Below are positions 27,307 to 52,733 of a stretch of DNA of 64,000 nt, one piece after another; position 1 is the stretch's first letter, and each line of letters starts with the position of its first letter. Source of the stretch: Candidatus Undinarchaeota archaeon (GTDB lineage: Archaea; SpSt-1190; JASMDC01); assembly GCA_964519305.1 (NCBI GenBank), contig CAZFHY010000011.1:70400-134399 (forward strand). The letters are read 5' to 3'. A program made the translations under genes and the position numbers. A model generated the notes under the pieces. That model did not search any database and was not told the DNA's origin. It worked only from the letters and a program-made list of their open reading frames with translations.

Positions 27307-28295
27307 CTTCCCTTGATCATGGCCTCTTCCTTCAGGGAGTGGCCTTCATACGCGATGGACATAATTGCGCGATTGAAGAAAGCACGTAGCTGTTTACCAT
27401 GGACCGGTATGATTGCGCCCATCTCGTCCGCGAGTTCCGGAACGTTGACGCTCCCGAGCGGGACGCCGACCTTCTCGAACACCCATAGGTAATGATTGAT
27501 GTAAGCCTCAACATCGATCATACCAACGGCGAGGACCTTTCCGCTTAACACAGCCTTGCGGGATTCAATTGAGATAGGCCACCTGCCAAGGTCGTCAATT
27601 TTCATATCATCTCGTGGATTAATGAGGGGGTCAAGGAGGTTGAACAGGAAAGGTTTACCTCGTATCTTCTCTTGCATGAGCGATGCGATTTGATCGAGCG
27701 CCTCGTTATTGGCTTTCTTATCGGCTTCTGCAGGGAATGCAGCTATTACAAATCCATCCTCCAAATTGCGCATCACAAGATCATCATCTTCGAGAGCACT
27801 CATGACGACCTCCTCCCACGCAGCGCGGGGTGCGAGGAGCTCAGGGGTGGCGGCAACGAGTATTTGGGTTTGCGCACCCTCGCCCGGACCGTGGTGCACG
27901 ATTCGGGGGAGTGCAAGGTCAAAACGGCGCATTGTGCCCATGCTCTCGATGATGTCGGCCGTTTCATCATCGTTCGCTCCTTGAGCGACATAGACGGCCA
28001 CAGGGGTTCCGGTCGACTCACCTTCTGCAGGGAAACCGACCAGCAATGCGTTCGGCGGGATGCCTTTAGGTGGAGCAGTTAGTGGCTCGAATGAAACTGT
28101 GTAATCGTTCATGGTGCTCCCGACATAGGAGATGCTCCACAGTGTCGATACCTTCAGGCCGCTCTTCTTAAGTGATCGGACGGATCGTTTCAGATGACCC
28201 TCGAGATCAGGGAGATACCTGAAGATGGGGAAAGGGAGGTTAGCTAGCCCGGGGATAGCTCCTTTGGCCTTTTTTTCGGCCACCCTATTCGCCAA
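27276..28295 (-). CDS. Hypothetical protein (339 aa), domain not recognised.
   Basis: Long clean ORF with protein-like composition. Confidence 0.55.
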   Translation of the reverse strand: MANRVAEKKAKGAIPGLANLPFPIFRYLPDLEGHLKRSVRSLKKSGLKVSTLWSISYVGSTMNDYTVSFEPLTAPPKGIPPNALLVGFPAEGESTGTPVAVYVAQGANDDETADIIESMGTMRRFDLALPRIVHHGPGEGAQTQILVAATPELLAPRAAWEEVVMSALEDDDLVMRNLEDGFVIAAFPAEADKKANNEALDQIASLMQEKIRGKPFLFNLLDPLINPRDDMKIDDLGRWPISIESRKAVLSGKVLAVGMIDVEAYINHYLWVFEKVGVPLGSVNVPELADEMGAIIPVHGKQLRAFFNRAIMSIAYEGHSLKEEAMIKGRCDVESALSP

Positions 28296-28545
28296 TCTCG
28301 ACGGCGTTACCGATGGCTTGGCCAGGCAAGCCCTTTTCGAACCGTGCCCTTAGCGCTCCCTTGTTCCCATGAGTGTGGGTGAGGGTGCCGACGAGGGCCT
28401 TTCCACCGGTGCTGGTCCACGTGACCTTCTTACCTATGAGGTCCTTGGCTTTGTCCTTGGACTCGATGCCCTCGACCTTAACGATATACTGGTTGGTTTG
28501 TTGGGTGTGTCGTCCCATGCGGTAATTTGCGATCGTTCCCTTCAT
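28285..28545 (-). CDS. rpl35ae: Ribosomal protein L35Ae.
   Basis: 86 aa, MKGTIANYRMGRHTQQTNQYIVKVEGIESKDKAKDLIGKKVTWTSTGGKALVGTLTHTHGNKGALRARFEKGLPGQAIG. ATG at 28543-28545 overlaps the stop of the upstream gene (ATGA). Confidence 0.75.
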   Translation of the reverse strand: MKGTIANYRMGRHTQQTNQYIVKVEGIESKDKAKDLIGKKVTWTSTGGKALVGTLTHTHGNKGALRARFEKGLPGQAIGNAVEIGE

Positions 28546-29765
28546 TTTCTTGCCCCCTTGACGAACTGTGGGGTGAGGTCCACTACGGCCCGGGAGGGGA
28601 ACTCCACTCCGACACGGATGATGCTGGTGCGGTGCTCCTTCTCTAAGGCGTTCAAGATGATCTGCACTAGGCCCTGGCCGATTACGGGTACGAAGCTGGA
28701 TGTTTCGATGGTCTTGAAGAGCAGACTGGGTTCGCTCTCCTTGAACTTGCCCACCTCCATCTTCTCGTTCACCGGGGCCACCCACACGTGCTTAAGGTTC
28801 TTCTCATGGTAGATTGCGATATAGAGTTCCTGCTCGAACACCCATGCATAGCCCCGCTTCTTACCGCCTTCGTAGAGCCAGAACACCTTGGCGGTGTTCT
28901 TGAGCTTGTCCTTGAGCTGACGTGCGCGTTCGCCCTTCTTTAGGAAAGTATCGGAGATCTCCTCCATCTTCTTACAGAAGTCCTCCACTTCCCGTTGGAA
29001 CGTGTCAATGTCACTAGGTGTGATCTTTGAAGCGGTCTCGTGTTCGATGTCCTTGTGGATAAGGAATATCTTGTTGTATGTCTCGATATATTTTGCGTCG
29101 ATGAGCCCTGGTTTGAGGAGATGTTCCTCGATGGCACCGCCGATCTCCTTGGGGCGGGCGGGGGGCATATCGAGCGCCATGAGCGCACCGTTGGCGGACC
29201 ACGAAGCAGCCCGGAAAAGCCTCTCTGCGCTCCACTCCATGTATTTATCGACACGCTTGAGGTATGATTTGGAACCGTCCATCTGCTTCCAAACCGCTTC
29301 GCGGGTGGGTCGGACTGCCCCTGAGAGCAGGAGCTTCTTGATGGGCTTGAAGAACCCGGAATCGTACACCGGTACACCCTCGCGAACGAAATTGAAGAAG
29401 ATAGCGTCCCCGTGGCGGATATAATCCCAGAACTCGGTTACCAGATGGAGTTGGATGTGGAGCTTTTTATCCATCTGTGCCGCGATCTCAGAGAGCTTTC
29501 TGTGTAGCTTCTCACGGATCTCTTGGGGCATACCTCCGCGTTCGACGGTATCATCGACGATGACAAGGACGTCGATATCGCTCGTTGACTTGAAGTCACC
29601 ACGAGCAAAAGAGCCGAAAACGATGACGGCGCGGGTATACTGACCGAATTTCTCTCGCACGATGCCGGTGAACCGCTTCACGACCTCAATCCGCTTCTTG
29701 ACCGCTAGCTTCTTGAGGTTCTTACGCGGAGTTACCGACCGCTTGGGCTCTTCCTTCTCTGCCAT
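28542..29765 (-). CDS. Nucleotidyltransferase-domain protein (Pol-beta-like NTase N-terminus, long helical C-terminal region).
   Basis: 407 aa. Motif VIVFGSFARGDFKSTSDIDVLVIVDD. Confidence 0.65.
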   Translation of the reverse strand: MAEKEEPKRSVTPRKNLKKLAVKKRIEVVKRFTGIVREKFGQYTRAVIVFGSFARGDFKSTSDIDVLVIVDDTVERGGMPQEIREKLHRKLSEIAAQMDKKLHIQLHLVTEFWDYIRHGDAIFFNFVREGVPVYDSGFFKPIKKLLLSGAVRPTREAVWKQMDGSKSYLKRVDKYMEWSAERLFRAASWSANGALMALDMPPARPKEIGGAIEEHLLKPGLIDAKYIETYNKIFLIHKDIEHETASKITPSDIDTFQREVEDFCKKMEEISDTFLKKGERARQLKDKLKNTAKVFWLYEGGKKRGYAWVFEQELYIAIYHEKNLKHVWVAPVNEKMEVGKFKESEPSLLFKTIETSSFVPVIGQGLVQIILNALEKEHRTSIIRVGVEFPSRAVVDLTPQFVKGARK

Positions 29766-30965: not shown

Positions 30966-31613
30966 ATGCCCATGACCGAACAGAAGGTGCAGCTAAGATG
31001 CTACAGCTACATAGACATGATGCAGCCACAGTTCGCCTCGTACTTCGCCACAGTGGCCCGAGGTTACCTCCCAAAGGCAGGCCAGGCCGCCCTCTTCATC
31101 GAGATCGCTCCGGGGATGCCTATCAATCGGATCACTGACGTGGCCGTCAAAGCCACCTCCGTCACCGTCGGCGAGCTCATCGTCGAGCGATCCTTCGGAT
31201 TCCTGGAAATCCACCACGACTCACAGGCCGAAGTGATGCAGGCGGGTCAGGCAATCCTCGATTATCTGGGTATCGACGAATCCGACCGGCTCAAGCCCAA
31301 GCTAGTCACAAACCAGATCATCAAACGGGTGAACGATTATCACTCTATGCTCATCAATCGCAGTACCAAAGGGATGATGCTCGTGCGGGACCAGTCCCTG
31401 TACATAGGTGAGACCGTACCTGCGGGCTATGCTGCGTACGCTGCCAACGAGGCCGAGAAGGCCGCTGATATCAACATTATCAACGTGCGCGCTGTTGGGC
31501 GTTTCGGACGGTACTATATCGGCGGGACCGAGTCAGAGGTCCAAGCGGCCATGCAGGCCGCGACCGTTGCGGTGAACGCTCTGGAAGGTAAGGAAGAGGA
31601 GCGAAAGAAATAG
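30966..31613 (+). CDS. BMC-T shell protein (tandem/permuted BMC domains, EutL/PduB-like).
   Basis: 215 aa. Two BMC-domain halves (…FGFLEIHHDSQAEVMQAGQAILDYLG… and …VGRFGRYYIGGTESEVQAAMQAATVAV…). Confidence 0.75.
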   Translation: MPMTEQKVQLRCYSYIDMMQPQFASYFATVARGYLPKAGQAALFIEIAPGMPINRITDVAVKATSVTVGELIVERSFGFLEIHHDSQAEVMQAGQAILDYLGIDESDRLKPKLVTNQIIKRVNDYHSMLINRSTKGMMLVRDQSLYIGETVPAGYAAYAANEAEKAADINIINVRAVGRFGRYYIGGTESEVQAAMQAATVAVNALEGKEEERKK

Positions 31614-31637
31614 ATACCCCGAGCCCCGCACCGGGTG

Positions 31638-31649
31638 TTATAATTTAAA
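31638..31649 (+). promoter_or_regulatory. TATA-like element (TTATAATTTAAA) upstream of the BMC-H gene. A GGAGG Shine-Dalgarno-like motif lies at 31706-31710.
   Basis: Motif position relative to the 31721 start. Confidence 0.3.
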
Positions 31650-31720
31650 GGAATACGTACGTTATACCTATCTCCCGAAGGGAGAACTGTTCACTGAAAG
31701 AGTATCGGAGGCTACCATAA

Positions 31721-32035
31721 ATGGAAGGTAACATCGCACTCGGCATGATTGAAACACGGGGCCTTGTAGGCTCTATCGAGGCCGCGGACGCCATGGTCAA
31801 GGCGGCACGGGTCAATCTCATTGGCAAGGAATTCATCGGTGGAGGCTATGTCACCGTGATGGTACGTGGTGATGTGGGAGCCGTGAAGGCTGCTGTCGAC
31901 GCTGGCGCTGCTGCTGCTAAGCGCGTCGGTGAGCTAGTGTCTGTGCACGTCATACCTCGCCCTCATGGCGAGGTGGAGTACATCCTCCCCAGTATCGACA
32001 CGGCGGCCGAGCATCCGGTCGTCAAGAAGAAATAG
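31721..32035 (+). CDS. BMC-H shell protein (Pfam00936, PduA/EutM-like hexamer).
   Basis: 104 aa. [30 protein letters not shown]…[26 protein letters not shown]. Confidence 0.9.
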
Positions 32036-32047
32036 GGTCGCATCGTG

Positions 32048-32078
32048 AGACCGCCCCCGGTCACATCGGGGGCGGTCT
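32048..32078 (+). terminator. Perfect 12-bp GC-rich stem-loop (AGACCGCCCCCG-gtcacat-CGGGGGCGGTCT) immediately after BMC-H. Attenuator/terminator-like.
   Basis: Inverted repeat read directly from the sequence. No oligo-T follows, so a function as an intrinsic terminator is uncertain. Confidence 0.35.
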
Positions 32079-32110
32079 GACCCGGTATCTGGGAAGAGGG
32101 GTCGTCTCGT

Positions 32111-32839
32111 ATGGACGCTGATGAGCTGATTGAGGAGATTACGACTGAGGTCATCAAGCGTTTCGATCCAACTTTTATCCGTATAGAGGATCGTCGTATT
32201 CTTGTCGTGCTCCACACTCCCGATAGGCATGTGCCTCAGGCCCTGACACGGCTCCTTGAGGATGTCGGTCCGCCGGGTGATCGGGATATCCTGGTCACCC
32301 CGGAAGTGCGTTCTTACTTGGCAGGACTCGGTATCAATTGTCGGGACCACGCTCGCGACGTCCTAGAGCCTGATGCAGTTCCCGGGATCCTCCATCGCCT
32401 CCACGAATATCGCATGGTTGTCGTCCCGGCTTTGAACTTCCATACAGTGCGCGCTATCGCCGAGCTGCGTGACGAGGATCCATTCGCACAACTTGTGCTC
32501 CAAGCACTGCTACGAGGATTGAAGGTTGTGATGCTCACCGATGCACTAGTACCTGCACATCGCGAGGGGGCGTCCGTGGCCCCCGGCCTTACGGCCGCGG
32601 CCGAGGATAACTTAAAAAAGCTACTTACCTACAACATCGTGCTCGTACGGCTTGATGAGATTGGGGCGGCGGTGGCCGAGAAGAAAGCACCTATGTCCAA
32701 GGACCTCATCACCGAGCAAGACATCATTGACCTCAAGAACGGCGATGTGACCGGACTAAGGGTGTCCCCCCGGGCCATCGTGACGCCGCTGGCGCGCGAC
32801 AAGGCGAAGGAATTGGGCATCACGATCATCCGGGAATGA
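32111..32839 (+). CDS. BMC-associated protein of unknown function with an N-terminal encapsulation-peptide-like helix. Its central domain is homologous to the N-terminal extension of the DeoC at 40069..41487.
   Basis: 242 aa. N-terminal MDADELIEEITTEVIKRF (amphipathic). Segments ILVVLHTPDR…, RMVVVPALNFHTVRAIAELRD…LKVVMLTDAL align with DeoC residues about 53-190. Confidence 0.7.
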   Translation: MDADELIEEITTEVIKRFDPTFIRIEDRRILVVLHTPDRHVPQALTRLLEDVGPPGDRDILVTPEVRSYLAGLGINCRDHARDVLEPDAVPGILHRLHEYRMVVVPALNFHTVRAIAELRDEDPFAQLVLQALLRGLKVVMLTDALVPAHREGASVAPGLTAAAEDNLKKLLTYNIVLVRLDEIGAAVAEKKAPMSKDLITEQDIIDLKNGDVTGLRVSPRAIVTPLARDKAKELGITIIRE

Positions 32840-32877
32840 GGTTCGGGGGGCTTGTACGGCGAGAGGGGTAAGCGTCA

Positions 32878-33192
32878 ATGGACGTATGCAAGGTAATAGG
32901 CGATATCGTCAGCACACGAAAGGACCCTAAGGCAGAGGGTTTCAAGCTACTTGTAGTACAACAGTTGGACATGCTTACCCAAAAACCCAAAGGCTACACC
33001 CTTGTGGCGGCAGATACAGTCGGTGCCGGCATGGGCGAAGTCGTGCTGGTTGTGCGCGGGAGCTCTTCGCGTATGACACAGCTTACCAATGAGAAACCCA
33101 TCGATGCAGCCATCATGGGGATCATCGACTACATACATATCGACGGGGAGCGGGTGTACTCCAAGTACCCCGACCGCGACCTGGAGACCTAG
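32878..33192 (+). CDS. BMC-P vertex protein (EutN/CcmL/PduN family, Pfam03319), paralog 1.
   Basis: 104 aa. MDVCKVIGDIVSTRKDPKAEGFKLLVVQQLD. Confidence 0.85.
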   Translation: MDVCKVIGDIVSTRKDPKAEGFKLLVVQQLDMLTQKPKGYTLVAADTVGAGMGEVVLVVRGSSSRMTQLTNEKPIDAAIMGIIDYIHIDGERVYSKYPDRDLET

Positions 33193-33203
33193 GGGGATAG
33201 AAC

Positions 33204-34634
33204 ATGGAAGTCACCGAGGACCAGATATCAAACATCGTCGAGGCAGTGCTCAAGAACGTGCAGAGCCAACTGGGCGACATGCCTGCGGCACGCGCGGGAA
33301 CTTCTCCGAAAGGTGAGGACGGGATCTTCGCAACCATTGACGAGGCCGTCACGCACGCGCTCGCGGCGCAGGAACAGTTCGTAGAACTGGGGCTGTCCAA
33401 GCGCGTCGAGATAATCCGGGCTATCCGGGATGCCATGGAAGAGAACGCGCGCACCTTGGCCGAGATGGCAGTGCGTGAGTCCGGGTTCGGCCGGATCGAG
33501 GACAAGGTCAAGAAGAACCTGCTCGCAGCCAAGAAGGCCCCGGGTACCGAGGCACTGCCTGCCGCCGCTAAGAGCGGCGACGATGGCCTCACACTCGTGG
33601 AACGAGGTCCTTACGGTGTCATCGGTTCCATCACACCCACAACCAATCCCGTGGCCACCATCACATCAAATGCCATCTCGATGCTCGCCGGGGGCAACAG
33701 CGTCGTGTTCAATCCCCATCCGAGGTCAAAGGGCGTCACCAACCGTGCAATCCAGATCATCAACCAGGCCGTCGTGACAGCGGGGGGTCCTCCGAACCTT
33801 CTCGGTTCTGTCATCGAGCCGACCATCGAGACATCGAACGAACTGATGAACCATCCGAGGATAAGGATGCTGATGGTCACCGGCGGTCCCGGCGTTGTGA
33901 CCGTGGCCATGAAGACCGGTAAGAAGGTCGTGGCCGCAGGTCCGGGAAATCCGCCTGTCATCGTGGACGATACCGCGAACATCCCTAGAGCCGCTAAGGA
34001 CATCGTGGACGGGGCAAGCTTCGATAACAATGTGCTTTGCATCGCTGAGAAGGAAGTGTACTGTTTCGAGGACGTCACCGACCCGCTCAAAGAGGAGATG
34101 AAGAAGCACGGCGCCTACGAGATCAGCGGTAAGCAGATCGAGGACCTGATATCCCTCGTGTTCGTGGATCCCGCCGGGGAACATCCCAAGGTCAACACGA
34201 AGTGGGTGGGTATCGACGCTTGGCGCATACTCAGAGAGATCGATATCCGCGTCAACGAGGATGTCCGGCTCATTATTGCCGAGGTCCCCGATGAACATCC
34301 TTTCGTCAATGCCGAGATGCTCATGCCCGTGCTACCTATCGTACGGGTGAGCACCATCGAGGAAGCGCTGGAGAGAGCGAAGCGCGCCGAGCACGGTTTC
34401 CGCCACACGGCCTGCATGCACTCTGAGAGCGTCTCCAACATGAGCTATGTAGCACGCTATATAGACACTACAATATTCGTCAAGAACGCCCCCTCCTATG
34501 CCGGTCTCGGTTTCGGTGGCGAGGGGCATGCCTCCCTGAGCATCGCCGGACCGACGGGGGAGGGTATCACAGGGCCTTTTGCCTTCACCCGCGAACGACG
34601 GTGCGTGCTCGCGGGATCCTTCCGTATCGTGTGA
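33204..34634 (+). CDS. CoA-acylating aldehyde dehydrogenase (PduP/EutE-like) with an N-terminal encapsulation peptide.
   Basis: 476 aa. N-terminal MEVTEDQISNIVEAVLKNV. Catalytic Cys in NNVLCIAEKE. ALDH fold motifs. Confidence 0.9.
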   Translation: MEVTEDQISNIVEAVLKNVQSQLGDMPAARAGTSPKGEDGIFATIDEAVTHALAAQEQFVELGLSKRVEIIRAIRDAMEENARTLAEMAVRESGFGRIEDKVKKNLLAAKKAPGTEALPAAAKSGDDGLTLVERGPYGVIGSITPTTNPVATITSNAISMLAGGNSVVFNPHPRSKGVTNRAIQIINQAVVTAGGPPNLLGSVIEPTIETSNELMNHPRIRMLMVTGGPGVVTVAMKTGKKVVAAGPGNPPVIVDDTANIPRAAKDIVDGASFDNNVLCIAEKEVYCFEDVTDPLKEEMKKHGAYEISGKQIEDLISLVFVDPAGEHPKVNTKWVGIDAWRILREIDIRVNEDVRLIIAEVPDEHPFVNAEMLMPVLPIVRVSTIEEALERAKRAEHGFRHTACMHSESVSNMSYVARYIDTTIFVKNAPSYAGLGFGGEGHASLSIAGPTGEGITGPFAFTRERRCVLAGSFRIV

Positions 34635-34645
34635 GTGAGTGAACC

Positions 34646-35980
34646 ATGGCCAAGAAACCCATCGACGCTATCAGGGACGCAGGTATTGTAGGGGCCGGAG
34701 GTGCCGGTTTCCCCACCCATGTCAAGTTGTCAGCAAAGGTCGACACAGTGATCGTCAACGGCGCTGAGTGTGAACCACTGCTCAAGGTGGACCAGCAGCT
34801 CACCGCCCTCCACGCCGAGGGGGTGGTCGCGGGTCTAGAGACAGCCATGGAGCTCACTGGTGCCGAGCGCGGTATCATCGCTCTTAAAGCGAAGTACAAG
34901 GCAGCCATCGAAGCGTTAACCCCTCTTATCGAGGGCAAGGACAACATAAGTATCGAGCTGCTGGGTAACTTCTACCCGGCAGGTGACGAGCAAGTGCTCG
35001 TGTATGAACTGTTGGGACGTATCGTGCCCGAGGGGGGCATCCCCTTGGAAGTCGGCGTAGTGGTCCAGAATGTGGGCACACTTATCAATATCGCAAAGGC
35101 CGTGAAGGGCGGAGTCCCGGTCACATCCCGGGCGTTGACCGTCGCTGGCGCTGTGGCGGAGCCCATGACCGTTGAGGTCCCTGTCGGGACGCCCCTACGC
35201 GAGCTCGTGGCCATGGCCGGTGGACCCACCGACGAGCCCTATAGCGTCCTTGTGGGAGGTCCTATGATGGGGAAGGTCGAGACCGACCTTGATACACCTA
35301 TCGACAAGACTACCTCTGGTATCGTCGTCCTCCCGTCGGACCATCCGCTCATGATCAAGAAGCAGGACGATATGTCCCGCAAGCTCAAACTTGCTCGGGC
35401 GGTGTGCATAAGGTGCAGCCTCTGCACACAGACCTGCCCACGCAGCTTGTTGGGCCACCATCTCTGGCCGGACCGGCTAATGCGTGCAATGGCCTACAAT
35501 GTCACGTGCGATCCGTCCGACCTCACAAACGCATTCCTGTGTGTCGAATGTGGTGTCTGCACGACCTACGCCTGTCCAATGGGACTGGACCCGTGTGCTA
35601 TGAACCGGGAGATCAAGGCACGTCTGGCCAAGGAGGGAATGGACAATCCCCATCGGGCCAAGGACCTGACCCCGAACCAGTACCGCTCGACACGCAAGAT
35701 ACCGACCTACCGGCTCGTCGGCCGACTGGGCCTGCTGGAGTACGATCGCGAGGCACCAGTGCGAGCGGTCGACCACCCTGTCCGAAAGGTGCGCATACCG
35801 CTCAAGCAGCACATCGGCGCACCCGCCAAGCCCACGGTGATCGTGGGCGATATCGTGAAGGAAGGGGATGTCATCGCCGAGATCCCAGAGGGGGCCCTGG
35901 GGGCCCGTGTTCACGCGTCCATTGCGGGGCGCGTTACTAAGATACTCGACCACATCGAGATAACCGCGGAGGAGAAGTGA
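34646..35980 (+). CDS. PduS-like Fe-S flavoprotein (RnfC/NuoF-related: Complex1_51K/SLBB N-terminus, two 4Fe-4S motifs, RnfC_N-like barrel at the C-terminus).
   Basis: 444 aa. GAGGAGFPTHVKL…VIVNGAECEPLL; CIRCSLCTQTCP and CVECGVCTTYCP ferredoxin motifs; C-terminal GDVIAEIPEGALGARVHASIAGRV. Confidence 0.8.
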   Translation: MAKKPIDAIRDAGIVGAGGAGFPTHVKLSAKVDTVIVNGAECEPLLKVDQQLTALHAEGVVAGLETAMELTGAERGIIALKAKYKAAIEALTPLIEGKDNISIELLGNFYPAGDEQVLVYELLGRIVPEGGIPLEVGVVVQNVGTLINIAKAVKGGVPVTSRALTVAGAVAEPMTVEVPVGTPLRELVAMAGGPTDEPYSVLVGGPMMGKVETDLDTPIDKTTSGIVVLPSDHPLMIKKQDDMSRKLKLARAVCIRCSLCTQTCPRSLLGHHLWPDRLMRAMAYNVTCDPSDLTNAFLCVECGVCTTYACPMGLDPCAMNREIKARLAKEGMDNPHRAKDLTPNQYRSTRKIPTYRLVGRLGLLEYDREAPVRAVDHPVRKVRIPLKQHIGAPAKPTVIVGDIVKEGDVIAEIPEGALGARVHASIAGRVTKILDHIEITAEEK

Positions 35981-35984
35981 TCAT

Positions 35985-36533
35985 ATGGTCCATGCTATCG
36001 GTCTTGTAGAAACCAACAACGTCGCCAAGGGCATCGAGTGCTGTGACGTGATGCTCAAGCGCTCGGATGTCGAGGCTATCGCCTCCTATCCAGTCTGTCC
36101 CGGGAAGTACATAATCCTCATCGCTGGCGAGGTGGCAGCAGTACGTTCGTCGGTGGACGCGGGCAAGCTTCAGGCCCAAGACTCCCTGGTGGACGACTTC
36201 GTTATCCCGAACATCCATCCACAGGTATTCCCTGCCATCCAGGCCACGACCGATGTGGACAATCTCCAGGCATTGGGTGTCATCGAGACCTTCTCGCTCT
36301 CATCCTGCATCGTGGCTGCCGACTTCGCGGTGAAGGCCGCGGACATCACGCTCATCGAGATCCGTCTCGGACGTGCTCTCGGGGGCAAGTCATTCGTCAC
36401 CTTGACGGGGGATACGGCCGCTGTTCGTTCAGCGGTCCAGGCCGGAGTGGAATCCGTGCGCGAGGACGGGCTCCTCCTTGACTACGTGGTGATCCCCTCA
36501 CCCCACCCCAACCTCCTTGAGTCCATCGTGTAA
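35985..36533 (+). CDS. BMC-T shell protein (tandem canonical BMC domains, PduT-like).
   Basis: 182 aa. Two BMC repeats (AIGLVETNNVAKGIECCDVMLK… and ALGVIETFSLSSCIVAADFAVKAADI…). Confidence 0.85.
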   Translation: MVHAIGLVETNNVAKGIECCDVMLKRSDVEAIASYPVCPGKYIILIAGEVAAVRSSVDAGKLQAQDSLVDDFVIPNIHPQVFPAIQATTDVDNLQALGVIETFSLSSCIVAADFAVKAADITLIEIRLGRALGGKSFVTLTGDTAAVRSAVQAGVESVREDGLLLDYVVIPSPHPNLLESIV

Positions 36534-36561
36534 TCCGGACAACTGAGGTGACACCGCGCTC

Positions 36562-36867
36562 ATGGAGACACCGACGGGCTGGGGGGACGCCCTCGGAATG
36601 GTGGAAACGCGGGGTCTAGTCGGTGCTGTTGAGGCTGCCGATGCCATGGTCAAGGCAGCACGGGTCTCGTTAGCGGGTCTTGAGCGTATTAGTGGTGGAC
36701 TCGTGACGGTGATGGTGCGAGGTGATGTTGGAGCAGTGAAAGCTGCAGTAGATGCCGGGGCCGCTGCTGCCCAGAGGGTCGGTGAACTCGTTGCGGTCCA
36801 CGTCATCCCCCGTCCCGACGAACTGGTCGAGGGCGTCCTTCCGCATGGCCCAGGGGGAAGATTGTAG
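36562..36867 (+). CDS. BMC-H shell protein, paralog 2.
   Basis: 101 aa. [30 protein letters not shown]…[26 protein letters not shown]. Confidence 0.85.
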
Positions 36868-37158
36868 ATGCTCATTGCCAAGGTAGTGGGAAATATCTGG
36901 GCCACTCAGAAGATACCGGTGCATGCGGACCAGAAGATAATGGTCTGTGTTCCGGTCGACCTCAAGGGGACATCCGAAGGTGACACTTTCCTGGCCATCG
37001 ACCGTGCACAGGCCGGGATCGGGGATGTCGTGCTAGTATCCCAAGAGGGAAAGTGCTGTAACATACTTATCGGTCGCGAATGGGCGGCCTGCAACTCTGC
37101 TATCCTGGGGGTAGTGGACTTCATTGAGACAGAGGAAGAATCAACACAGTTTGCGTGA
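36868..37158 (+). CDS. BMC-P vertex protein, paralog 2.
   Basis: 96 aa. MLIAKVVGNIWATQKIPVHADQKIMVCVPVD. Stop overlaps the TIM start region. Confidence 0.85.
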   Translation: MLIAKVVGNIWATQKIPVHADQKIMVCVPVDLKGTSEGDTFLAIDRAQAGIGDVVLVSQEGKCCNILIGREWAACNSAILGVVDFIETEEESTQFA

Positions 37159-37160
37159 TC

Positions 37161-38084
37161 ATGATGGACGACGAAGAACTAGCAAAAGTGGTGAGAGATG
37201 TGGTACTCTCGAAACTCCAAGAGAAAGAAGCCCGGGACGCGCTTTCGACGTCCCCTGAAGACATGTCCTCTGACGGGACCATCCCTCGTCATAACTATGC
37301 AGAGGCGGGTCATCCCCCTCTCATCGTAGCGGCGAATTGGAAGATGCACATGGATAAGCAATCGACGATCGAGTACGCCCAGGCGTTCGATCCGCCTGCC
37401 AGGGACGACCTCGCTGTTGTCGTTTGCCCACCCTATTATCTGCTATCCCTGCTCAAAGAGGCCTTGGATGACAAGCCCGTGGGGGTTGGTGCCCAGAACA
37501 TGCACCCTGAGCCAAAGGGGGCTTTCACAGGGGAGCTATCTCCGCTAATGCTCGCTGATGCGGGCTGCTCGCACGTAATCCTTGGCCACTCCGAGCGCCG
37601 ACATATCTTCGGTGAGACCGATGAACAGATCAATCCGAAGGTGGCGGCTGCCCTGGGCGCGGGGATTGCTCCAATCCTATGTGTAGGGGAGACGCTCGAC
37701 CAAAGGGAAGATGGTTCGACCATGCGCGTGATCACTAACCAGCTCACCCTTGGTCTCAATCGCATATCCATCAACGAGGTGCGCCCCCTGATAATTGCCT
37801 ACGAACCTGTGTGGGCTATCGGCACAGGGCGAGTTGCAACGCCCGAGCAAGCGCAAGAGGTCCATGCACATATCCGTGGAGTGCTCAAACAGCTCTATTC
37901 CTACAACGTTGCCCGGGACACACGCATCCTCTATGGCGGTTCTGTGAAACCGGCCAATGCTGGTGAGCTCGCACTCCAGCCCGACGTGGATGGATTCCTC
38001 GTGGGTGGTGCAGGCCTCAAACCGGACTCCTTCACCGAGATAATCCGCAACTCCCTGCACGCATTGGAGGGGGATGGTTCATAG
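37161..38084 (+). CDS. tpiA: Triosephosphate isomerase, bacterial-type (about 250-aa core) with a roughly 50-aa N-terminal extension carrying an encapsulation-peptide-like helix.
   Basis: Motifs AANWKMH, GHSERR, AYEPVWAIGTG, GGSVKP. N-terminal MMDDEELAKVVRDVVLSKLQEKEA. The frame is also open from the GTG at 37155. Confidence 0.9.
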   Translation: MMDDEELAKVVRDVVLSKLQEKEARDALSTSPEDMSSDGTIPRHNYAEAGHPPLIVAANWKMHMDKQSTIEYAQAFDPPARDDLAVVVCPPYYLLSLLKEALDDKPVGVGAQNMHPEPKGAFTGELSPLMLADAGCSHVILGHSERRHIFGETDEQINPKVAAALGAGIAPILCVGETLDQREDGSTMRVITNQLTLGLNRISINEVRPLIIAYEPVWAIGTGRVATPEQAQEVHAHIRGVLKQLYSYNVARDTRILYGGSVKPANAGELALQPDVDGFLVGGAGLKPDSFTEIIRNSLHALEGDGS

Positions 38085-38096
38085 GGGTGAAGGTGG

Positions 38097-38579
38097 TTGG
38101 ACTTCACTAAAGGAACTCGTGTCGTGATCGGTAGTGACCACGGTGGATTCGAGATCAAGGAGGCAGTGAAGGACCACCTCCAGCGTTTAGGATATTGTGT
38201 GGTGGACCTCGGATGCCATTCGCCTGATCCGGTGGACTATCCCGATATAGCCTTCCTTGTCGCCAGTGCCATAGCGACCAACGACGACACGGCCGGTATA
38301 ATGGTGGATGGTGTCGGTGTTGCTTCTGCCATGGTGGGGAACAAGGTACCTGGCGTGCGGGCCGCACCGGTATACGATGTGTTCTCGGCCCGGTCCAGTC
38401 GTGAGCACAACGATGCTAACATGCTCACTCTTGGTGCGAGGGTCACGGGGCCTGGCTTGGCGTGCCTCGTCGCCGAGGAATGGCTTGGAACCCCCTTCGG
38501 TGGGGGGCGACACGAACGACGGGTGAATAAGATCAGGGATATCGAGGCCCGGTTCATCCGGAGGGTGCCTCTGAAATAG
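38097..38579 (+). CDS. rpiB: Ribose-5-phosphate isomerase B (RpiB/LacAB family). TTG start.
   Basis: 160 aa. RVVIGSDHGGFEIKE…GVGVASAMVGNKVPGVRAA…NDANMLTLGARV. Confidence 0.85.
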   Translation: MDFTKGTRVVIGSDHGGFEIKEAVKDHLQRLGYCVVDLGCHSPDPVDYPDIAFLVASAIATNDDTAGIMVDGVGVASAMVGNKVPGVRAAPVYDVFSARSSREHNDANMLTLGARVTGPGLACLVAEEWLGTPFGGGRHERRVNKIRDIEARFIRRVPLK

Positions 38580-38916
38580 TACACCTAAGAACAAGGATTT
38601 CCCATCAGGGGGTATAAGTCGAGGGCCAGGTGTTCCCTGGCCCCCATAAGTCGTAGACTGGAATGAGAAAAAACTACTTTTTTATCGAACTAATTGAAGA
38701 AACAACCAATTAATCGATATTATGAAGAGAACTTCGCCAATACGCGAATTTAATGAAGAATACCAAGATTGGAAAGATTATACGGGATATATTTGCTCCT
38801 TGCGCCGAAAAAAGGCAATAATGTGCGGAGTGTGGCGGCCTACGCAAAGGTTCTAGATAATGCTTTTAATTAATGAGCGACCACTTGCTTGTGGACGAAC
38901 CTAGGACAAGGAGAGT
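38580..38916 (+). other. AT-rich (about 35% GC) 337-nt non-coding island inside the BMC locus, upstream of the pilin-like gene. Likely carries its promoter.
   Basis: Sharp compositional drop relative to the flanking roughly 60% GC genes. Multiple TATA-like tracts (TTTTTATCGAACTAATTGAAG…, GCTTTTAATTAATGAG). Confidence 0.4.
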
Positions 38917-39654
38917 GTGACCATGAGAATCCGAATGAAACGACTTGTGCGGTCCAAGCGTGGTGTGACACCCGTTATTGCCATTATTCTGTTGCTAATG
39001 ATGACAGTAGCAGCGGCAGGTGCGGCCTATCTTTGGATTACTAAGATACAGAAGACCATCACCACACAGGCTGAGAAGCAGATCATGACCAGTTTCCAGC
39101 AGGGAACACTGCAGGTCATCTCTGCCTATGCGTGTGAATCGAACTGCACGACCAACGGTGAAAGGGGCTGTGACGACAGGTCCAAGGTCAGTGGTGAAGT
39201 GTTCAAATACCATGGTAATGCCCCCGAGTCGACGTGGGGTGGAAACCTGACGGACGAGGGATGTTCGCTTGGAGGAGCATTGTGCTTCCTAGTGCGAAAC
39301 ACTGGAAATACTGTTGTGCGTATGAGCGATCTTGGTTCAGCCCAGGTCGTCTACGAGCTGCCCGAGGCGCCCGAGCTCGGTGAGCGCCCGCTGATGAGCA
39401 AGACAATCGGTGCGACCTTCAGCGGTGGCGGCACGGATGCGTGCTGCAAGTTCTCTGAGGTAGCTTCGGAAGGTAAGTGCGGAAACCAAAAATCCGTGGC
39501 CAGCAGAGAGACCTTCATCATCAGCTTCTTCGGAAAGTTCAAGACCTCGAATGGCGAGTCCCGAAGAATGTGGTACAGCGATGTGAAGGACCAGCGCATC
39601 ATCGTGAGCATGAACCTGCCCAGCGGGTTCAAGGTCTCACACCAGGTTGTGTAA
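38917..39654 (+). CDS. Type IV pilin-like / archaeal class III signal-peptide protein (DUF361-like), with a Cys-containing globular domain.
   Basis: 245 aa. N-terminal …RSKRGVTPVIAIILLLMMTVAAAGAAYLW with a KRG|VTPVIA prepilin-peptidase-type cleavage site. Confidence 0.6.
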   Translation: MTMRIRMKRLVRSKRGVTPVIAIILLLMMTVAAAGAAYLWITKIQKTITTQAEKQIMTSFQQGTLQVISAYACESNCTTNGERGCDDRSKVSGEVFKYHGNAPESTWGGNLTDEGCSLGGALCFLVRNTGNTVVRMSDLGSAQVVYELPEAPELGERPLMSKTIGATFSGGGTDACCKFSEVASEGKCGNQKSVASRETFIISFFGKFKTSNGESRRMWYSDVKDQRIIVSMNLPSGFKVSHQVV

Positions 39655-39778
39655 AAGCACAGAGATCGTGGACGGATAAAGAACTGGTGAGAGGGGCTCC
39701 GGTCATGGCCGGGGCCCTCATATTCTTCTTCTAGAGCCTGTGACAACCTATTTAAAGCTGCAGCGCTCCCTTCCCGCC

Positions 39779-40069
39779 ATGCTCCTAGCGCAGGTGGTGG
39801 GCAATGTCGTGTGTACGCGAAAGGACCCCCATCTCAAGGGTATAAAGCTCCTTGTGGTACAGCGCGTCAATGAGGCCGGAGAGGTCATTGGGCGTCACCA
39901 GGTCGCTGTCGATGCACTGGGCACGACCGGACCTGGCGAGTTGGTATATCTTGCCACAAAGAAGGAGGCAGCACACCCGTTCGAGGGCCACTTTCTCCCC
40001 GTGGACCTCGCGATAATTGGACATGTAGAGGGAGTGAACATACCCGATCCAACACTGGTCAGGGGTTGA
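39779..40069 (+). CDS. BMC-P vertex protein, paralog 3 (the frame is also open from the ATG at 39740).
   Basis: [30 protein letters not shown]… EutN/CcmL fold. Stop TGA 40067-40069 overlaps the DeoC start. Confidence 0.8.
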
Positions 40070-41487
40070 TGACAATGGTTCAGGATGCTGATATCGAATC
40101 GCTTGTTAAGAAGGTCACAGAGCAGGTAATGAAGCGAATGGAAGCGCCCAAGAAAGCGTGTCCAGAGTCTGTCGCTCCATCGAGTCCCTCTGGAGGGGTG
40201 CTCGTTGTACTTGCTGGGGAACGCGGTGATGTGGACGCTGTGCTCGACCAGGTGCGGTGCATCTGTGCAGAGGCCTCCGATGCAACCATCGTGCTAGCGA
40301 ACGGAGCGGAGGCGCTCTTTCCGAGTTCGAGGCTCTCTGTAGCAGCGCCCGGAGCGACAATCCTGACCGAGAGCGATTGCCCTGATGTGCTCAACCTTCT
40401 CAAGGGTGCATCTGTGGTATTTATCCCCCTTCTGGACCTTGCATCGGCCTCGAAGATCGCTGATACCGTTACAGACACACTACCTGTCAAGCTCGCAGTG
40501 TTCGCAGCTCTTCAGGGAAAGACTGTCGTAGCGGCGCGTGACGGTATCCCTTCTGCGTGTATCCCCTTGGAACAGGTACCCGATGGTGCCCGCAAACGCT
40601 TGGAAGGTATGCTCGGGGACCTAGAGGAGCTAGGACTCACTCTTGTAGATCTTGCCGATATCGCAGGAGGGAAGAAGGTATCCCTCGTGTGCGCACAGGG
40701 AAAGGGTGAGGAGTGCCTGGCATGCGGTCTTTGTGTCATCAACAATGCCGACAGTGTCCGGGGCATACTCGCTGCTGGCGCTGACCGCATCGGTGCAGCG
40801 GCGGGAACCCGGATCGAGGACAAGGAGATCGCTAATACTATCGACCACACGCTGCTCAAGCCCGACGCCACCACCGAACAGATACGCAAGTTGTGTGAGG
40901 AGGCCATCCAGTACGAGTTCGCCTCGGTGTGCGTCAATCCCGCAAACGTCAAGCAAGCCGCCGACTTGGTGAAGGGATCAAAAGTGAAGGTCACTACTGT
41001 CATAGGCTTCCCGTTGGGCGCCACAACACCCACGACCAAGTCCATCGAGACGCGTGACGCCATCGCAAATGGCGCAAATGAGATCGACATGGTCATCAAC
41101 GTAGGTGCGCTGAAATCCGGGGACGACGACCTCGTCCGTCGCGATATTGAAGCCGTTGTGGAAGCGGCCCAAGGTCAAGCGATCGTAAAGGTAATCCTTG
41201 AGACCGCGCTCCTGAACAAGGATGAGAAGGTCCGCGGCTGTCTCTTGGCCAAGATGGCCGGTGCCGACTTCGTCAAGACCTCTACAGGATTCGGGCCTTC
41301 GGGTGCCACTGTGGAGGACATCGCGCTCATGCGGGCAACCGTCGGCCCCGACATGGGAATAAAGGCATCAGGTGGAATCCGTGATACCGAGACCGCGAAG
41401 GCCATGATCGCAGCGGGAGCAACCCGCATAGGCGCATCCGCATCAGTCGCTATAACGAAAGGCGACGAGGGCGGTGAAGGTTACTAG
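40069..41487 (+). CDS. deoC: Deoxyribose-phosphate aldolase (DeoC) with a roughly 260-aa N-terminal extension: an encapsulation-peptide-like helix, a domain shared with the 32111..32839 protein, and a CxxCxxC motif.
   Basis: C-terminal DeoC core …[15 protein letters not shown]…VCVNP…[12 protein letters not shown]…VKVILET…VKTSTGFG…GIKASGGIR…. N-terminal [33 protein letters not shown] motif at about residue 225. Confidence 0.9.
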
Positions 41488-41493
41488 TAGCCA

Positions 41494-42171
41494 ATGGCCA
41501 ATCCCGACTGGTTGCGACAGCGTATCTGTGATATTGGCAGACGTATGTATGAACACCGATATGTGGTGGCGACATCAGGAAATATCTCTGCCAGATGCGG
41601 GGATGATTTGTTCATCACCACTCCTTCCGGAGTGTGCAAGGGTGAGATGTCGCCTGACCAGCTCGTGATCGTGGACGGTGCCGGCCAGCTCGTTCGTCAG
41701 GATTGTCTGTACAGGCAGTCTTCTGAGTTCAGGCTCCATTTGGCGGCGTACACCGTACGACCCGATGTGGCGGCGGTTGTCCACGCACACCCTCCGTTCT
41801 GTACTGCCTTCGCTACAGCGCGAATCCCATTGGACCGTGCAGTTCTGCCTGAGAGCGTGCTGACCGTGGGTGCTGTGCCCTTGGCATCCTATGCAACCCT
41901 CTCGACGTGGGAGGTACCGGAATCTGTGGCGCCGTTCCTTGCTGAGGCCAACGCGGTGCTCCTTGCCAATCACGGTGTCGTGACATTCGGTGGCGATCTC
42001 GAGGAGGCGTATCACCGACTGGAGGAGGTGGAGCATCTTGCCGAGACGGTGTACAGGGCCCGTCGTCTTGGTGGGGAAGTGGCCCTTACATCTGATGAGC
42101 TCGCGGCCCTGGATAACGTGCGGAGGAAGATGGGGCACCCGAAGGGTGCTCCCTGTCGACCGCTCGAGTGA
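41494..42171 (+). CDS. Class II aldolase/adducin-family protein (FucA/AraD/MtnB-like).
   Basis: 225 aa. ATSGNISAR…HLAAY…VVHAHPPFCTAFA… metal-binding His motifs. Confidence 0.85.
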   Translation: MANPDWLRQRICDIGRRMYEHRYVVATSGNISARCGDDLFITTPSGVCKGEMSPDQLVIVDGAGQLVRQDCLYRQSSEFRLHLAAYTVRPDVAAVVHAHPPFCTAFATARIPLDRAVLPESVLTVGAVPLASYATLSTWEVPESVAPFLAEANAVLLANHGVVTFGGDLEEAYHRLEEVEHLAETVYRARRLGGEVALTSDELAALDNVRRKMGHPKGAPCRPLE

Positions 42172-51660: not shown

Positions 51661-52113
51661 TTATTCAGATGAATCTACTTCTGTAGAAGATGGGCTCCCC
51701 TTGCCCTTTTTTCTCACTTCAGACATGACATTTTCCCACTCCAGGGGGCGCCCCCACATGTTTACGGCGATTCTGACTAGAATTGGATCGTCGGTTCCAG
51801 ATATCAGAGCGCCCGTAAGTGCTGAAGCCTTGTCGAAGCGGAGCACGAAAGCAGATCCGCGGGAGGCAGGTGAAGCTGGAACTTCGGGAGGGAAGCGTGA
51901 AATGACCTCCCGAATGGCCCGGGAACTCTCGATACGCCCCTCGATGATGGTGATGGGATTGCCGAAGTGACCTGAAGCGGAACGTACGTTCAGTACGATA
52001 TTATCGGGAAGGATCGTGCGAAGTGCAGTCCTTACCTTCTCCACCGACTCTGTTGCGTGGCAGAAAGCCTTCGCCGAGAGGGAGGAGAACCTCAAACCTT
52101 TTCCGTGCCCCAT
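51661..52113 (-). CDS. UPF0201 / COG1325 family protein (predicted RNA-binding, exosome-associated).
   Basis: 150 aa. AFCHATESVEKVRTAL motif typical of the family. Adjacent to rpl15e, as is common in archaea. Confidence 0.5.
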   Translation of the reverse strand: MGHGKGLRFSSLSAKAFCHATESVEKVRTALRTILPDNIVLNVRSASGHFGNPITIIEGRIESSRAIREVISRFPPEVPASPASRGSAFVLRFDKASALTGALISGTDDPILVRIAVNMWGRPLEWENVMSEVRKKGKGSPSSTEVDSSE

Positions 52114-52640: not shown

Positions 52641-52733
52641 CCTTTTCACCTGAAGAACATCAGCTGCTGATGGTTTCGGCACGTCTTCGCCCAATCGTTT
52701 TAAACCTTTTGGAAGAAACGAGCGCCCCGGGCC

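Follow-up and report, generated by a model that had tools for sequence, protein, structure and literature searches.

A flavoprotein-fold module with a putative scaffolding role in an archaeal sugar-phosphate-utilisation microcompartment operon

The operon and its cargo genes

The window, meaning the whole 64 kb stretch of archaeal DNA analysed here, carries a microcompartment operon of the sugar-phosphate-utilisation (SPU) type at positions 30966-42171, as identified from Pfam matches of shell proteins and enzymes. Genes for DERA (PF01791), RpiB (PF02502) and an aldehyde dehydrogenase (AldDH) cluster with BMC-H, BMC-T and BMC-P shell genes. The operon is dedicated to sugar-phosphate breakdown and belongs to an archaeal carrier, the archaeal markers L35Ae, L15e, PAC2 and class I CCA enzyme flanking it. 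A syntenic copy is present in L001. The gene order is H-p242-P-AldDH-PduS-T, where p242 is a standalone protein of 242 residues. The encoded PduS is of the type with FMN and two [4Fe-4S] clusters, and an Fe-S-type BMC-T bears a CPGK motif.

Four cargo proteins are encoded on the plus strand, and the ORFs and N-termini quoted for them in the earlier note are present in the sequence. The first, p242 (32111..32839; AlphaFold2 (AF2) model with a pLDDT of 88.6), combines an N-terminal helix of the encapsulation peptide (EP) type with a flavoprotein-fold domain and a small C-terminal domain resembling the C-terminus of PduM and the N-terminus of EutQ. The CoA-acylating AldDH (33204..34634) matches PF00171 from residue 43. 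The triosephosphate isomerase (TIM, also TPI; 37155..38084) has a 55-aa N-terminal extension and matches PF00121 from residue 57. DeoC (40066..41487) is a Flav-DERA fusion, consisting of an EP-type helix, a linker, a flavoprotein-fold domain, an extension with four cysteines and a duplicated strand, and the DERA barrel. The DeoC ORF opens at TTG 40066; its true start is likely ATG 40075, because the 95%-identical homologue P0004 begins MVQD.

Targeting helices

The earlier note had described EP-like helices on AldDH, TIM, DeoC and p242, and this description is confirmed. The N-termini of 60 gene proxies in the window were scanned for a hydrophobic spacing pattern, followed by calculation of mean hydrophobicity (mean H) and hydrophobic moment over 16 residues. 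The pattern occurs at 14 N-termini. Only those of the four cargo proteins are amphipathic (mean H -0.26 to 0.06; moment 0.34-0.49); the other 10, signal peptides or TM segments, are hydrophobic instead (mean H 0.33-0.83; moment 0.07-0.35). The helices comprise residues 3-18 of p242 (DADELIEEITTEVIKR; 32117..32164; moment 0.43, mean H -0.12), residues 4-20 of AldDH (33213-33263; moment 0.48), about residues 6-22 of TIM (37170-37220; moment 0.34) and residues 8-26 of DeoC (40087..40143). AF2 models those of p242 and DeoC as helical at exactly these residues, and in DeoC a disordered linker follows (residues 27-39, pLDDT below 50).

All four N-termini show the terminal amphipathic helix of ~15-20 aa and the poorly conserved linker that characterise EPs. 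Such an extension is absent from non-compartment homologues, cytosolic DeoC of Bacillus, Paenibacillus and Streptococcus beginning at the barrel. Of 55 homologues, 95% conserve I17, 96% V21 and 80% L25 of the DeoC helix, and the EP motif is kept in both families, A1 and A2 (57 fusions, 63 standalone proteins). A TIM homologue in L003 bears a similar N-terminal extension. For related archaeal operons, the accessible text of Du et al. (2025, bioRxiv 10.1101/2025.11.08.687404) reports predicted EPs on Flav+DERA, AldDH and a small protein termed "DUF", all three of which were recruited to shells in GFP assays only with their EPs present; AldDH EPs were tested in a related operon. The N-terminal extension of an SPU DERA causes insolubility and was read as an EP, according to the accessible text of Dwyer et al. 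(2024, Commun Biol 7:1562). Residues 1-23 of PduM are likewise known from the literature as a functional signal sequence. The evidence thus supports the view that the N-termini of AldDH, TIM, DERA and p242 behave as EPs of the standard helix-and-linker type, which would drive these proteins into the compartment core. The helix of p242 may pack on the adjoining domain instead of acting as a free EP, since its pLDDT is high (about 90) and the linker short (~10 aa).

Encapsulation of TIM had been considered unusual, which is not confirmed. In SPU loci, a TIM with an EP is the normal case: TPI is regular in SPU1/SPU4 and in type II AMC, the TPI-containing archaeal operons described by Du et al. 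2025 in its accessible text, and an N-terminal EP on SPU4 TPI was already predicted in the 2024 literature.

A flavoprotein-fold domain common to p242 and DeoC

The N-terminal domain of DeoC and p242 are true homologues, as the earlier note had proposed, although only profile methods reveal this. The pairwise comparison suggested there, BLASTP of p242 against DeoC, yields nothing significant (best E-value 0.68, in the wrong region), and the DeoC N-domain on its own finds no matches in a word-index search. Both results would suit the view that there is no real relationship, with the similarity stemming from composition or generic Rossmann-like patterns and the helices being ordinary structure. 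However, an HMM built from 55 DeoC-fusion homologues, the window sequence being left out, matches p242 residues 1-192 with 58.8 bits (E 2.6e-20), an independent match across 190 residues, and reaches 46 bits when p242 is stripped of its EP. The homology is assigned a probability of 100% by hhalign, and phmmer with the DeoC N-domain recovers fused and standalone proteins alike. Moreover, secondary-structure elements follow in identical order in the AF2 models of both proteins, both models match one fold family, and the EP motif is conserved in the fusion and standalone families. The HMM and fold matches refute the absence of a relationship, which is hardly conceivable any more. The common unit consists of EP, linker and a ~160-aa domain, with p242 1-192 matching DeoC 8-205. 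The domain itself covers residues 29-190 of p242 (32195..32680; matched by Foldseek and the DeoC N-domain HMM) and residues 44-200 of DeoC (40195..40665). Both proteins would descend from one ancestral module made up of an EP, a linker and an HFCD/flavoprotein-fold Rossmann domain.

The domain had been called novel, a label that the fold contradicts: it is the HFCD/flavoprotein (PF02441) fold, and the fusion already bears the name "Flav+DERA" in the accessible text of Du et al. 2025. The p242 domain matches UbiX, EpiD, DmrB and PPC-DC in Foldseek (probability 1.0, E about 2e-5). In structure comparisons of the predicted models, the domains of p242 and DeoC have the Rossmann-type fold of the HFCD flavoproteins EpiD, CoaC/CoaBC, UbiX, DmrB/AfpA and DpaB, but they share only 8-20% identity with them, do not conserve the FMN-binding and catalytic motifs, and differ in the added EP and the BMC context. 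PF02441 (Pfam gathering score 22.7 bits) is matched by 56 of the 63 standalone relatives and 10 of the 57 fusions; p242 and the DeoC N-domain show no match to it even at E<10. The relatives also match TIGR02536 "eut_hyp", the AfpA and MJ0208 models and, weakly, the CoaBC and CoaC NCBIfam models.

The flavin-binding motifs, which we take to be a Gly/Ser-rich β1 loop and PxxxNT...GxxDxL, partly on the model of EpiD and CoaC, are found in neither p242 nor DeoC. The family consensus at the FMN-motif sites reads TGG / LSxxA / PxLTxNTAAKxAxGIxDTL; p242 has HTP / VTPEV / PALNFHTVRAIAELRDEDP, and DeoC has AGE / LANGA at the first two sites. The Gly-rich β1 loop and the conserved Asn/Thr of PxxxNT are thus lost in both, and FMN binding has presumably been lost with them. 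Because these motifs are degenerate, the role of the shared domain in both window proteins is probably structural rather than redox. The ancestral protein may have been a real flavoprotein, given that most standalone relatives keep flavoprotein motifs, as indicated by their PF02441 matches, and p242 and DeoC could have retained the capacity to bind flavin.

A catalytic function has also been weighed. An active decarboxylase or prenyl-FMN-type enzyme, handling a cofactor inside the compartment, e.g., in CoA/pantetheine-related chemistry, would agree with the closest solved folds (UbiX, EpiD, TvaF, PPC decarboxylase and DpaB) and with the weak CoaBC/CoaC matches among relatives. This is nevertheless improbable, as every score lies far below the family cut-offs and the window copies have degenerate motifs. 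Furthermore, EUT, PDU, SPU and archaeal loci all contain the domain despite their unrelated chemistries, pointing to a function generic to the organelle, and the truncated relative PduM lacks most of the domain, yet is a functional structural protein.

A structural role has a precedent in the same fold. HFCD proteins form trimers or dodecamers, and in CoaBC the N-terminal HFCD domain is the dodecamer core, organising the fused second enzyme. In the DERA fusion, the module would similarly target the signature enzyme and give it a platform for oligomerisation, resembling CoaBC, whose dodecameric core displays its second enzyme.

The DERA-specific extension

Between the flavoprotein-fold domain and the TIM-barrel catalytic domain (residues 253-465; 40822..41460), DeoC contains an extension that is also present in SPU DERAs without the flavoprotein-like domain. 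The CxxCxxC motif that had been placed within the shared domain belongs here: ECLACGLCV is present at DeoC residues 216-224 (nt 40711-40737), but it follows the shared domain and has no counterpart in p242. The motif in fact involves four cysteines, C209-x7-C217-x2-C220-x2-C223 (40690..40734), a candidate metal/Fe-S site located in a linker region predicted by AF2 with low confidence (pLDDT 42-65). Among 55 homologues, 82-84% retain each of the cysteines, and all have G221. The element is missing from one whole fusion subclade, and in other SPU DERAs it has lineage-specific spacing or, in some, is absent. A ferredoxin-type 4Fe-4S site (PF00037) is not found in the window DeoC, which has no CxxCxxCxxxCP, no downstream CP and no Fer4 match; 2 of the 57 fusions match Fer4 weakly, at about 1e-3. 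Judged from the sequence, the four-cysteine element probably binds a metal (Fe-S or Zn).

The pre-barrel segment that follows (residues 226-247; 40741..40806) is a copy of the DERA C-terminal helix/strand. It aligns to DERA residues 439-458 in hhalign (probability 92%, E 5e-7), and its best PDB sequence match is the DERA C-terminus. G238, A239, R241 and G247 are invariant, and the segment is present in all SPU DERA extensions. According to the accessible text of Dwyer et al. 2024, SPU DERA carries an amphipathic helix and a short structured extension without counterpart in cytosolic DERAs. The window DERA has the pre-barrel "GAxRIG" segment in common with these enzymes, but differs in the 160-aa flavoprotein-fold domain inserted between EP and extension. 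The cysteines and the duplicated C-terminal strand are not mentioned in that text.

The cysteines invite a redox interpretation, in which the domains bind FMN and the DERA element binds [4Fe-4S]. A relay with PduS/MNdh and the Fe-S BMC-T would then re-oxidise AldDH-made NADH in the lumen, or DERA would be redox-regulated. The fold family comprises FMN enzymes and electron carriers such as DmrB/AfpA, with relatives matching AfpA and MJ0208, and flavin-binding Pfams recur in BMC loci (Axen 2014). The high conservation of the four cysteines, the invariant G221, placed as in ferredoxin CxxCGxC, and the two weak Fer4 matches point in the same direction. A four-cysteine element adjoining a flavoprotein-fold domain, in an operon with PduS and a CPGK-motif BMC-T, is equally what would be expected of a redox module. 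On the other hand, the FMN-binding residues are gone from both window proteins along with any PF02441 match, the cysteine region is predicted at low confidence, and the DERA reaction does not need redox chemistry. Because the cysteine element is patchy and lineage-specific in spacing, a dispensable structural metal site fits better than an obligatory relay. The redox interpretation is therefore possible but doubtful.

p242 and PduM

The C-terminal small domain of p242 (residues 198-241, ITEQDI...IVTPLARDKAKELGITII; 32702..32833) matches NCBIfam PduM models at positions 112-153 and EutQ at positions 2-46. The match to PduM models reaches 2e-4, yet its scores derive from the C-terminal 45 aa only and fall far short of the family cut-offs (TIGR04493, 19.5 vs 50 bits; NF011957, 21.4 vs 179 bits). 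Conversely, the family HMM detects E. coli PduM with 31.4 bits, by way of the EP+β1 region and the C-terminal domain; residues 118-162 of this PduM alone score 21.8 bits. The similarity is limited to these two regions. Like PduM (TIGR04493, PF15953), p242 has the signal sequence pattern, the ~45-aa C-terminal domain and a gene immediately upstream of a pentamer gene. At 163 aa, PduM is shorter than p242 and lacks the greater part of the flavoprotein-fold domain; p242 falls outside the PduM equivalog family. The p242 gene sits between BMC-H and BMC-P, as pduM precedes pduN, and the window order parallels pduM-N-(O)-P-S-T. A 261-aa family member fills the pduM slot in a PDU operon.

p242 also resembles the TIGR02536 "eut_hyp"/PF02441 accessory proteins of EUT2, GRM3 and PDU loci, in which a flavoprotein-fold domain is followed by a small C-terminal domain. 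It is highly divergent from them, with degenerate flavin motifs, and its TIGR02536 score of 41.8 bits (E 9e-11, model positions 55-206) against a cut-off of 152.6 bits marks it as a homologue, not a member.

PduM mediates core-shell binding, and the N-terminus of EutQ is required for EutM binding. A 2025 study states that PduM is without known homologues outside Pdu compartments; the C-terminal domain that p242 has in common with PduM and EutQ, and its position in the pduM slot, are new here. The shared domain and the operon slot favour reading p242 as a long-form PduM-like structural protein and suggest a linker between core and shell. In this model, p242 would be anchored to the cargo core by its EP and would oligomerise through the HFCD-type domain, and its C-terminal domain would reach shell or shell-linker proteins and so connect the core with the shell.

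Proposed role of the module

The earlier suggestion of a microcompartment-associated module is supported, and scaffolding is the best-supported of its proposed roles, a structural function being favoured by the degenerate FMN motifs. The preferred reading, to which we assign a probability of roughly 60%, is an SPU operon with EP-bearing cargo whose shared module is structural, forming a PduM-like core-shell linker in p242 and a platform in DERA, the latter with a probable four-cysteine metal site. Within this reading, the helices, the homology, the fold, the synteny and the conservation of motifs are observed directly, whereas oligomerisation, core-shell linking, loss of FMN binding and metal binding are inferred.

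A broader model is speculative and rather unlikely as a whole. It holds that the module of EP, HFCD fold and PduM C-terminal domain is one ancient, widespread core-organising scaffold of catabolic microcompartments, encompassing PduM, TIGR02536 "eut_hyp", the archaeal "DUF" and the "Flav" of Flav-DERA. HFCD-like trimers or dodecamers would act as nuclei for the cargo core. In SPU and archaeal systems, the scaffold would be fused to the signature enzyme via a metal-binding four-cysteine hinge and the duplicated barrel strand, the metal site adding redox- or metal-dependent control of assembly or DERA activity. 

Independently of this broader model, placing PduM, the TIGR02536 proteins, the archaeal "DUF" and the Flav domain of DERA in one family, which would share a known oligomerising fold, provides a concrete and testable model for cargo-core organisation and the core-shell tie. 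This bears on what PduM and the "flavoprotein" accessory genes of EUT, PDU, GRM and SPU loci do. The EP sequences, the candidate scaffold and the candidate metal site are also engineering handles for SPU and archaeal compartments.

Comparison with archaeal AMC operons

Most of the system, namely the targeting helices, Flav+DERA, the EP-bearing DUF and TPI operons, is already described for related systems. As far as the accessible text of Du et al. 2025 goes, the archaeal AMC has the same DERA-flavoprotein fusion, AldDH, PduS/MNdh, RPI, TPI and class II aldolase, the same shell set (H, Ts with CPGK and three P) and the same small EP-bearing "DUF" between H1 and P1. That text contains no statement that "DUF" is homologous to "Flav" or PduM, and does not mention the cysteine element. 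In contrast to the AMC operons as described there, the window carries a Tdp (CsoS1D_N) shell gene, has no PTAC or citrate synthase within its 64 kb, and encodes a BMC-P2 without a K/R-rich tail. For archaeal compartments it adds nothing categorically new, being one further non-Hodarchaeales example. The presence of Tdp and the absence of PTAC and citrate synthase fit the SpSt-1190/JASLWR01-type operons, which Du et al. 2025 describe briefly, and not the Hodarchaeales ones.

The shared flavoprotein-fold domain

The 242-aa protein p242 (32111-32839) and the N-terminal region of DeoC, the 473-aa DERA encoded at 40066-41487, are homologous, as the earlier note had proposed. Pairwise BLASTP between the two gave no signal. 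This null result is not counted as a refutation; the profile methods are decisive. An HMM was trained on the first 255 alignment columns of 55 DeoC relatives, excluding the window DeoC and the sequence 95% identical to it. It matches p242 over residues 1-192 with 58.8 bits (E 2.6e-20, single comparison), and still with 46 bits without the encapsulation peptide (EP). Alignment of the two families with hhalign gave 100% probability, a value that is not independent because the standalone relatives in the alignment had been chosen for their resemblance to DeoC; the HMM test is independent.

With full-length DeoC as the query, 8,000 DeoC-family proteins were obtained at E <= 1e-20. Among the 120 best listed, most align over ~90-99% of the query with 45-56% identity, and the N-terminal region is therefore present in them too. 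A word-index homologue search limited to DeoC residues 1-250 gave no matches, whereas the full-length query and an exhaustive phmmer search did find relatives. The phmmer search, using residues 1-255 against 1.8 billion representatives, yielded 101 matches, a mixture of ~470-aa fusions and ~260-aa standalone proteins whose alignment extends from the EP as far as residue ~200. With the ~260-aa proteins, p242 can be aligned over its whole length. A locus search with the DERA-fusion alignment was saturated with cytosolic DeoC genes, and about seven fused loci were among the matches listed. Bacterial fused forms occur in Polyangia, Riflebacteria, Elusimicrobia, and Armatimonadetes. Homology between the segment preceding the DeoC barrel and the C-terminal domain of p242 was also considered; hhalign reaches this region without confidence, and no claim is made.

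In the AlphaFold2 models of p242 and DeoC, the secondary-structure elements follow an identical order, and both models match HFCD flavoproteins. Foldseek hits of p242 include UbiX, EpiD, TvaF, DmrB, and PPC decarboxylase, with a probability of 1.0 and E values of ~2e-5. The corresponding Pfam family PF02441 is matched by 56 of the 63 standalone relatives and by 10 of the 57 fusions; in p242 and the window DeoC it was not detected, even at E<10. The shared domain is thus not new but a strongly diverged domain with the flavoprotein fold.

The consensus of the standalone family retains three motifs regarded as flavoprotein hallmarks, FTGGxxG, VLSxxAE, and VPVLTxNTAAKxAxGIxDTL, which align with DpaB and TvaF. 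At these positions p242 contains HTPDRH, VTPEV, and PALNFHTVRAIAELRDEDP, and the window DeoC contains AGERG, LANGAE, and a third stretch of 19 residues. Across the fusion family, 27 columns of the N-terminal domain are conserved at >= 70%, compared with 162 in the DERA domain. Judged by these motifs, the window copies are probably structural rather than redox-active. HFCD proteins are obligate trimers or dodecamers, and in CoaBC the N-terminal HFCD domain constitutes a dodecameric core that displays a fused second enzyme. In a comparable geometry, the fusion would act as a multivalent, EP-studded hub, because DERA itself is dimeric.

The name "Flav+DERA" was already given to this fusion by Du et al. 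(2025 preprint, PMC12747264). Of the interpretation put forward in the earlier note, a BMC-specific module that probably serves scaffolding is retained, but its novelty is not.

Relationship of p242 to PduM

Beyond the shared module, p242 carries a confidently modelled (AlphaFold2) C-terminal domain of 45 aa (ITEQDI...IVTPLARDKAKELGITII). The nearest NCBIfam model of p242 is TIGR02536, "ethanolamine utilization protein" (E 9e-11, far under the cut-off). For the 45-aa domain, the matching regions in known proteins are the C-terminus of PduM and the N-terminus of EutQ. According to published work, EutQ requires its first 100 residues for binding the shell protein EutM.

A 261-aa family member composed of EP, PF02441, and C-terminal domain is encoded between pduL and pduN in a Firmicute-type PDU operon (locus L089, 8001-8786). 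By comparison with the E. coli pdu operon, this is the pduM slot. E. coli PduM itself (163 aa; L091, 15449-15940) reaches 31.4 bits with the family HMM, contributed by the EP and first strand (residues 3-50) and by the C-terminal domain (118-162). PduM therefore looks like a shortened family member. In published work, PduM mediates the binding between core and shell; its residues 1-23 are a functional signal sequence, and the protein has been thought to lack homologues outside Pdu. Contrary to that statement, the sequence comparison indicates that PduM may be a truncated flavoprotein-fold protein.

The gene order also mirrors the pdu operon, with BMC-H, p242, BMC-P, aldehyde dehydrogenase, PduS, and BMC-T corresponding to pduM-N-(O)-P-S-T. 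Homology and synteny together suggest that p242 is a long-form PduM-like core-shell linker. Synteny likewise points to p242 as a homologue of the protein termed "DUF" by Du et al. (PMC12747264), for which the locus tags of H1 and P1 are one gene apart. The apparent homology of "DUF" to both the "Flav" domain and PduM is an incremental new point.

Small proteins of 110-146 aa are found in the SPU6 loci of Anaerolineae (L028, 14903-15268; L068, 14681-15013; L019, 6281-6637; L063, 14528-14968; L033, 13868-14230). Their first ~45 residues match the PduM-C/EutQ-N-like domain of the p242 family with E values of 1e-7 to 7e-6. Such matches suggest that this small domain is a mobile BMC module.

Predicted N-terminal targeting helices

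A hydrophobic spacing pattern was sought in the first 28 residues of 60 non-overlapping long ORFs, which served as gene proxies for the window. The pattern occurs in 14 of them. Ten are hydrophobic signal or TM segments, with a mean hydrophobicity of 0.33-0.83 and a helical moment of 0.07-0.35. Amphipathicity is confined to the other four, namely the aldehyde dehydrogenase, TIM, DeoC, and p242 (mean hydrophobicity -0.26 to 0.06, moment 0.34-0.49), which fall inside the EP range quoted by Du et al. (PMC12747264). AlphaFold2 places a helix at residues 3-18 of p242; in DeoC, the predicted helix spans 8-26 and leads into a disordered linker (27-39). The Pfam domain begins at residue 57 in TIM and at residue 43 in the aldehyde dehydrogenase. 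In cytosolic DeoC, the N-terminus lies directly at the barrel. The EP consensus M..d.LV..It.eVl.RL is kept across the 57 DERA fusions and 63 standalone relatives, and TIM of a related locus bears an N-terminal extension of the same kind.

The four EP-like N-termini recognised in the earlier note thus hold, but they are of an already known kind. EPs were predicted on Flav+DERA, the aldehyde dehydrogenase, and "DUF", and EP-dependent recruitment was reported, by Du et al. (PMC12747264). Contrary to what had been supposed, an encapsulated TIM is not unusual: an N-terminal EP was predicted on the SPU4 TPI by Dwyer et al. 2024, and the original definition of SPU loci already included TIM. The class II aldolase, RpiB, and PduS were rejected as additional EP carriers, their Pfam domains beginning <= 9 residues from the N-terminus. 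The C-terminal helix of the aldolase presumably represents a normal FucA-type tail and not an EP.

Cysteine element and pre-barrel extension of DERA

The motif ECLACGLCV is present in DeoC, but it is not part of the shared domain to which it had been assigned. The conserved unit consists of four cysteines, C209, C217, C220, and C223, each found in 82-84% of homologues, together with an invariant G221; one fusion subclade lacks the unit. It follows the shared domain and falls within a stretch modelled with low confidence; nothing equivalent is present in p242.

DERA genes from 84 loci were compared. Every compartment-associated DERA among them contains a conserved "V..VV.aGA.R[IVL]" segment directly before the barrel, including those without the flavoprotein-fold domain from Anaerolineae SPU6, Bacteroidota, and several Elusimicrobia. 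The segment usually follows three or four cysteines (ORFs in L006, L007, L008, L010, L015, L017, L024, L028, L042, and L050), and cytosolic DeoC has neither. The cysteine element therefore belongs to an extension specific to DERA. Its spacing is lineage-specific: C-x3-C-x4-C-x3-C in Anaerolineae, C-x4-C-x6-C-x3-C in Riflebacteria, CC-x4-C-x4-C in Bacteroidota, and CPxC in some Elusimicrobia. The cysteines are absent from the DERA extensions of Acidimicrobiia (L051, L081) and of L037. The element is plausibly a metal site, with Fe-S or Zn as candidates; that its spacing varies and that some lineages lack it speaks against an obligatory electron relay.

The pre-barrel segment (window 40741-40806, DeoC residues 226-247; also in L006, L008, L011, L024, L028, L042, and others) is a copy of the C-terminal helix/strand of DERA. 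The two align in hhalign with 92% probability (E 5e-7), and the best PDB sequence match of the segment is the DERA C-terminus. Possible readings are a docking site and a barrel element that is either swapped or competing. Among the SPU papers searched, none was found to mention a Cys-rich DERA extension. This element and the duplicated barrel strand add a second incremental point.

In a subset of the standalone flavoprotein-fold BMC proteins (P0135, P0138, P0139, and P0145), an insertion that follows the conserved "GADP" motif contains a CxxC or CxC pair, at a position different from that of the DERA element.

Operon and host context

The operon is contiguous on the + strand (30966-42171) and is an SPU-type metabolosome in an archaeon. 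Its first gene (30966-31613) encodes a 215-aa permuted tandem BMC protein (Tdp, CsoS1D-like), with CsoS1D_N matched in a near-identical homologue. It is followed by BMC-H, p242, BMC-P, aldehyde dehydrogenase, a PduS/RnfC-type FMN/Fe-S protein, a tandem BMC-T with a CPGK motif, a further BMC-H and BMC-P, TIM, RpiB (38097-38579), a 245-aa pilin-like protein (38917-39654), a third BMC-P, DeoC, and the class II aldolase. Archaeal markers flank the operon, namely L35Ae (28285-28785), L15e (52092-52694), PAC2 (7224-7979), a class I CCA-adding enzyme (59021-60421), and a PDCD5-like dsDNA-binding protein. No PduL/PTAC homologue was found in the 64-kb window.

Archaeal SPU-type systems were reported by Du et al. 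(PMC12747264), who briefly mention that non-Hodarchaeales operons (SpSt-1190, JASLWR01) possess an extra Tdp gene and lack PTAC. The window agrees on both points; its system belongs to a known kind, as a new and divergent member. Identical copies of the p242 sequence are present on at least 24 contigs of up to 238 kb from different public metagenome assemblies (L085-L087 among them), so the organism is widespread and well sampled. In the L086 assembly, the aldehyde dehydrogenase gene is broken into two ORFs. A relative at 95% amino-acid identity (L001) has an identical gene order.

In RpiB, the residue corresponding to the catalytic Cys66 of the E. coli enzyme is an Asp (IMVDGVGVA). According to Dwyer et al. 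2024, this substitution occurs in all SPU RPIs, whose ribose-5-phosphate isomerase activity is negligible. The 245-aa protein between RpiB and the third BMC-P has no Pfam match. It carries an archaeal class III (type IV pilin-like) signal peptide (KRGVTPVIAIILLLMMTVAAAG), and a 264-aa counterpart is encoded at the equivalent position in L001.
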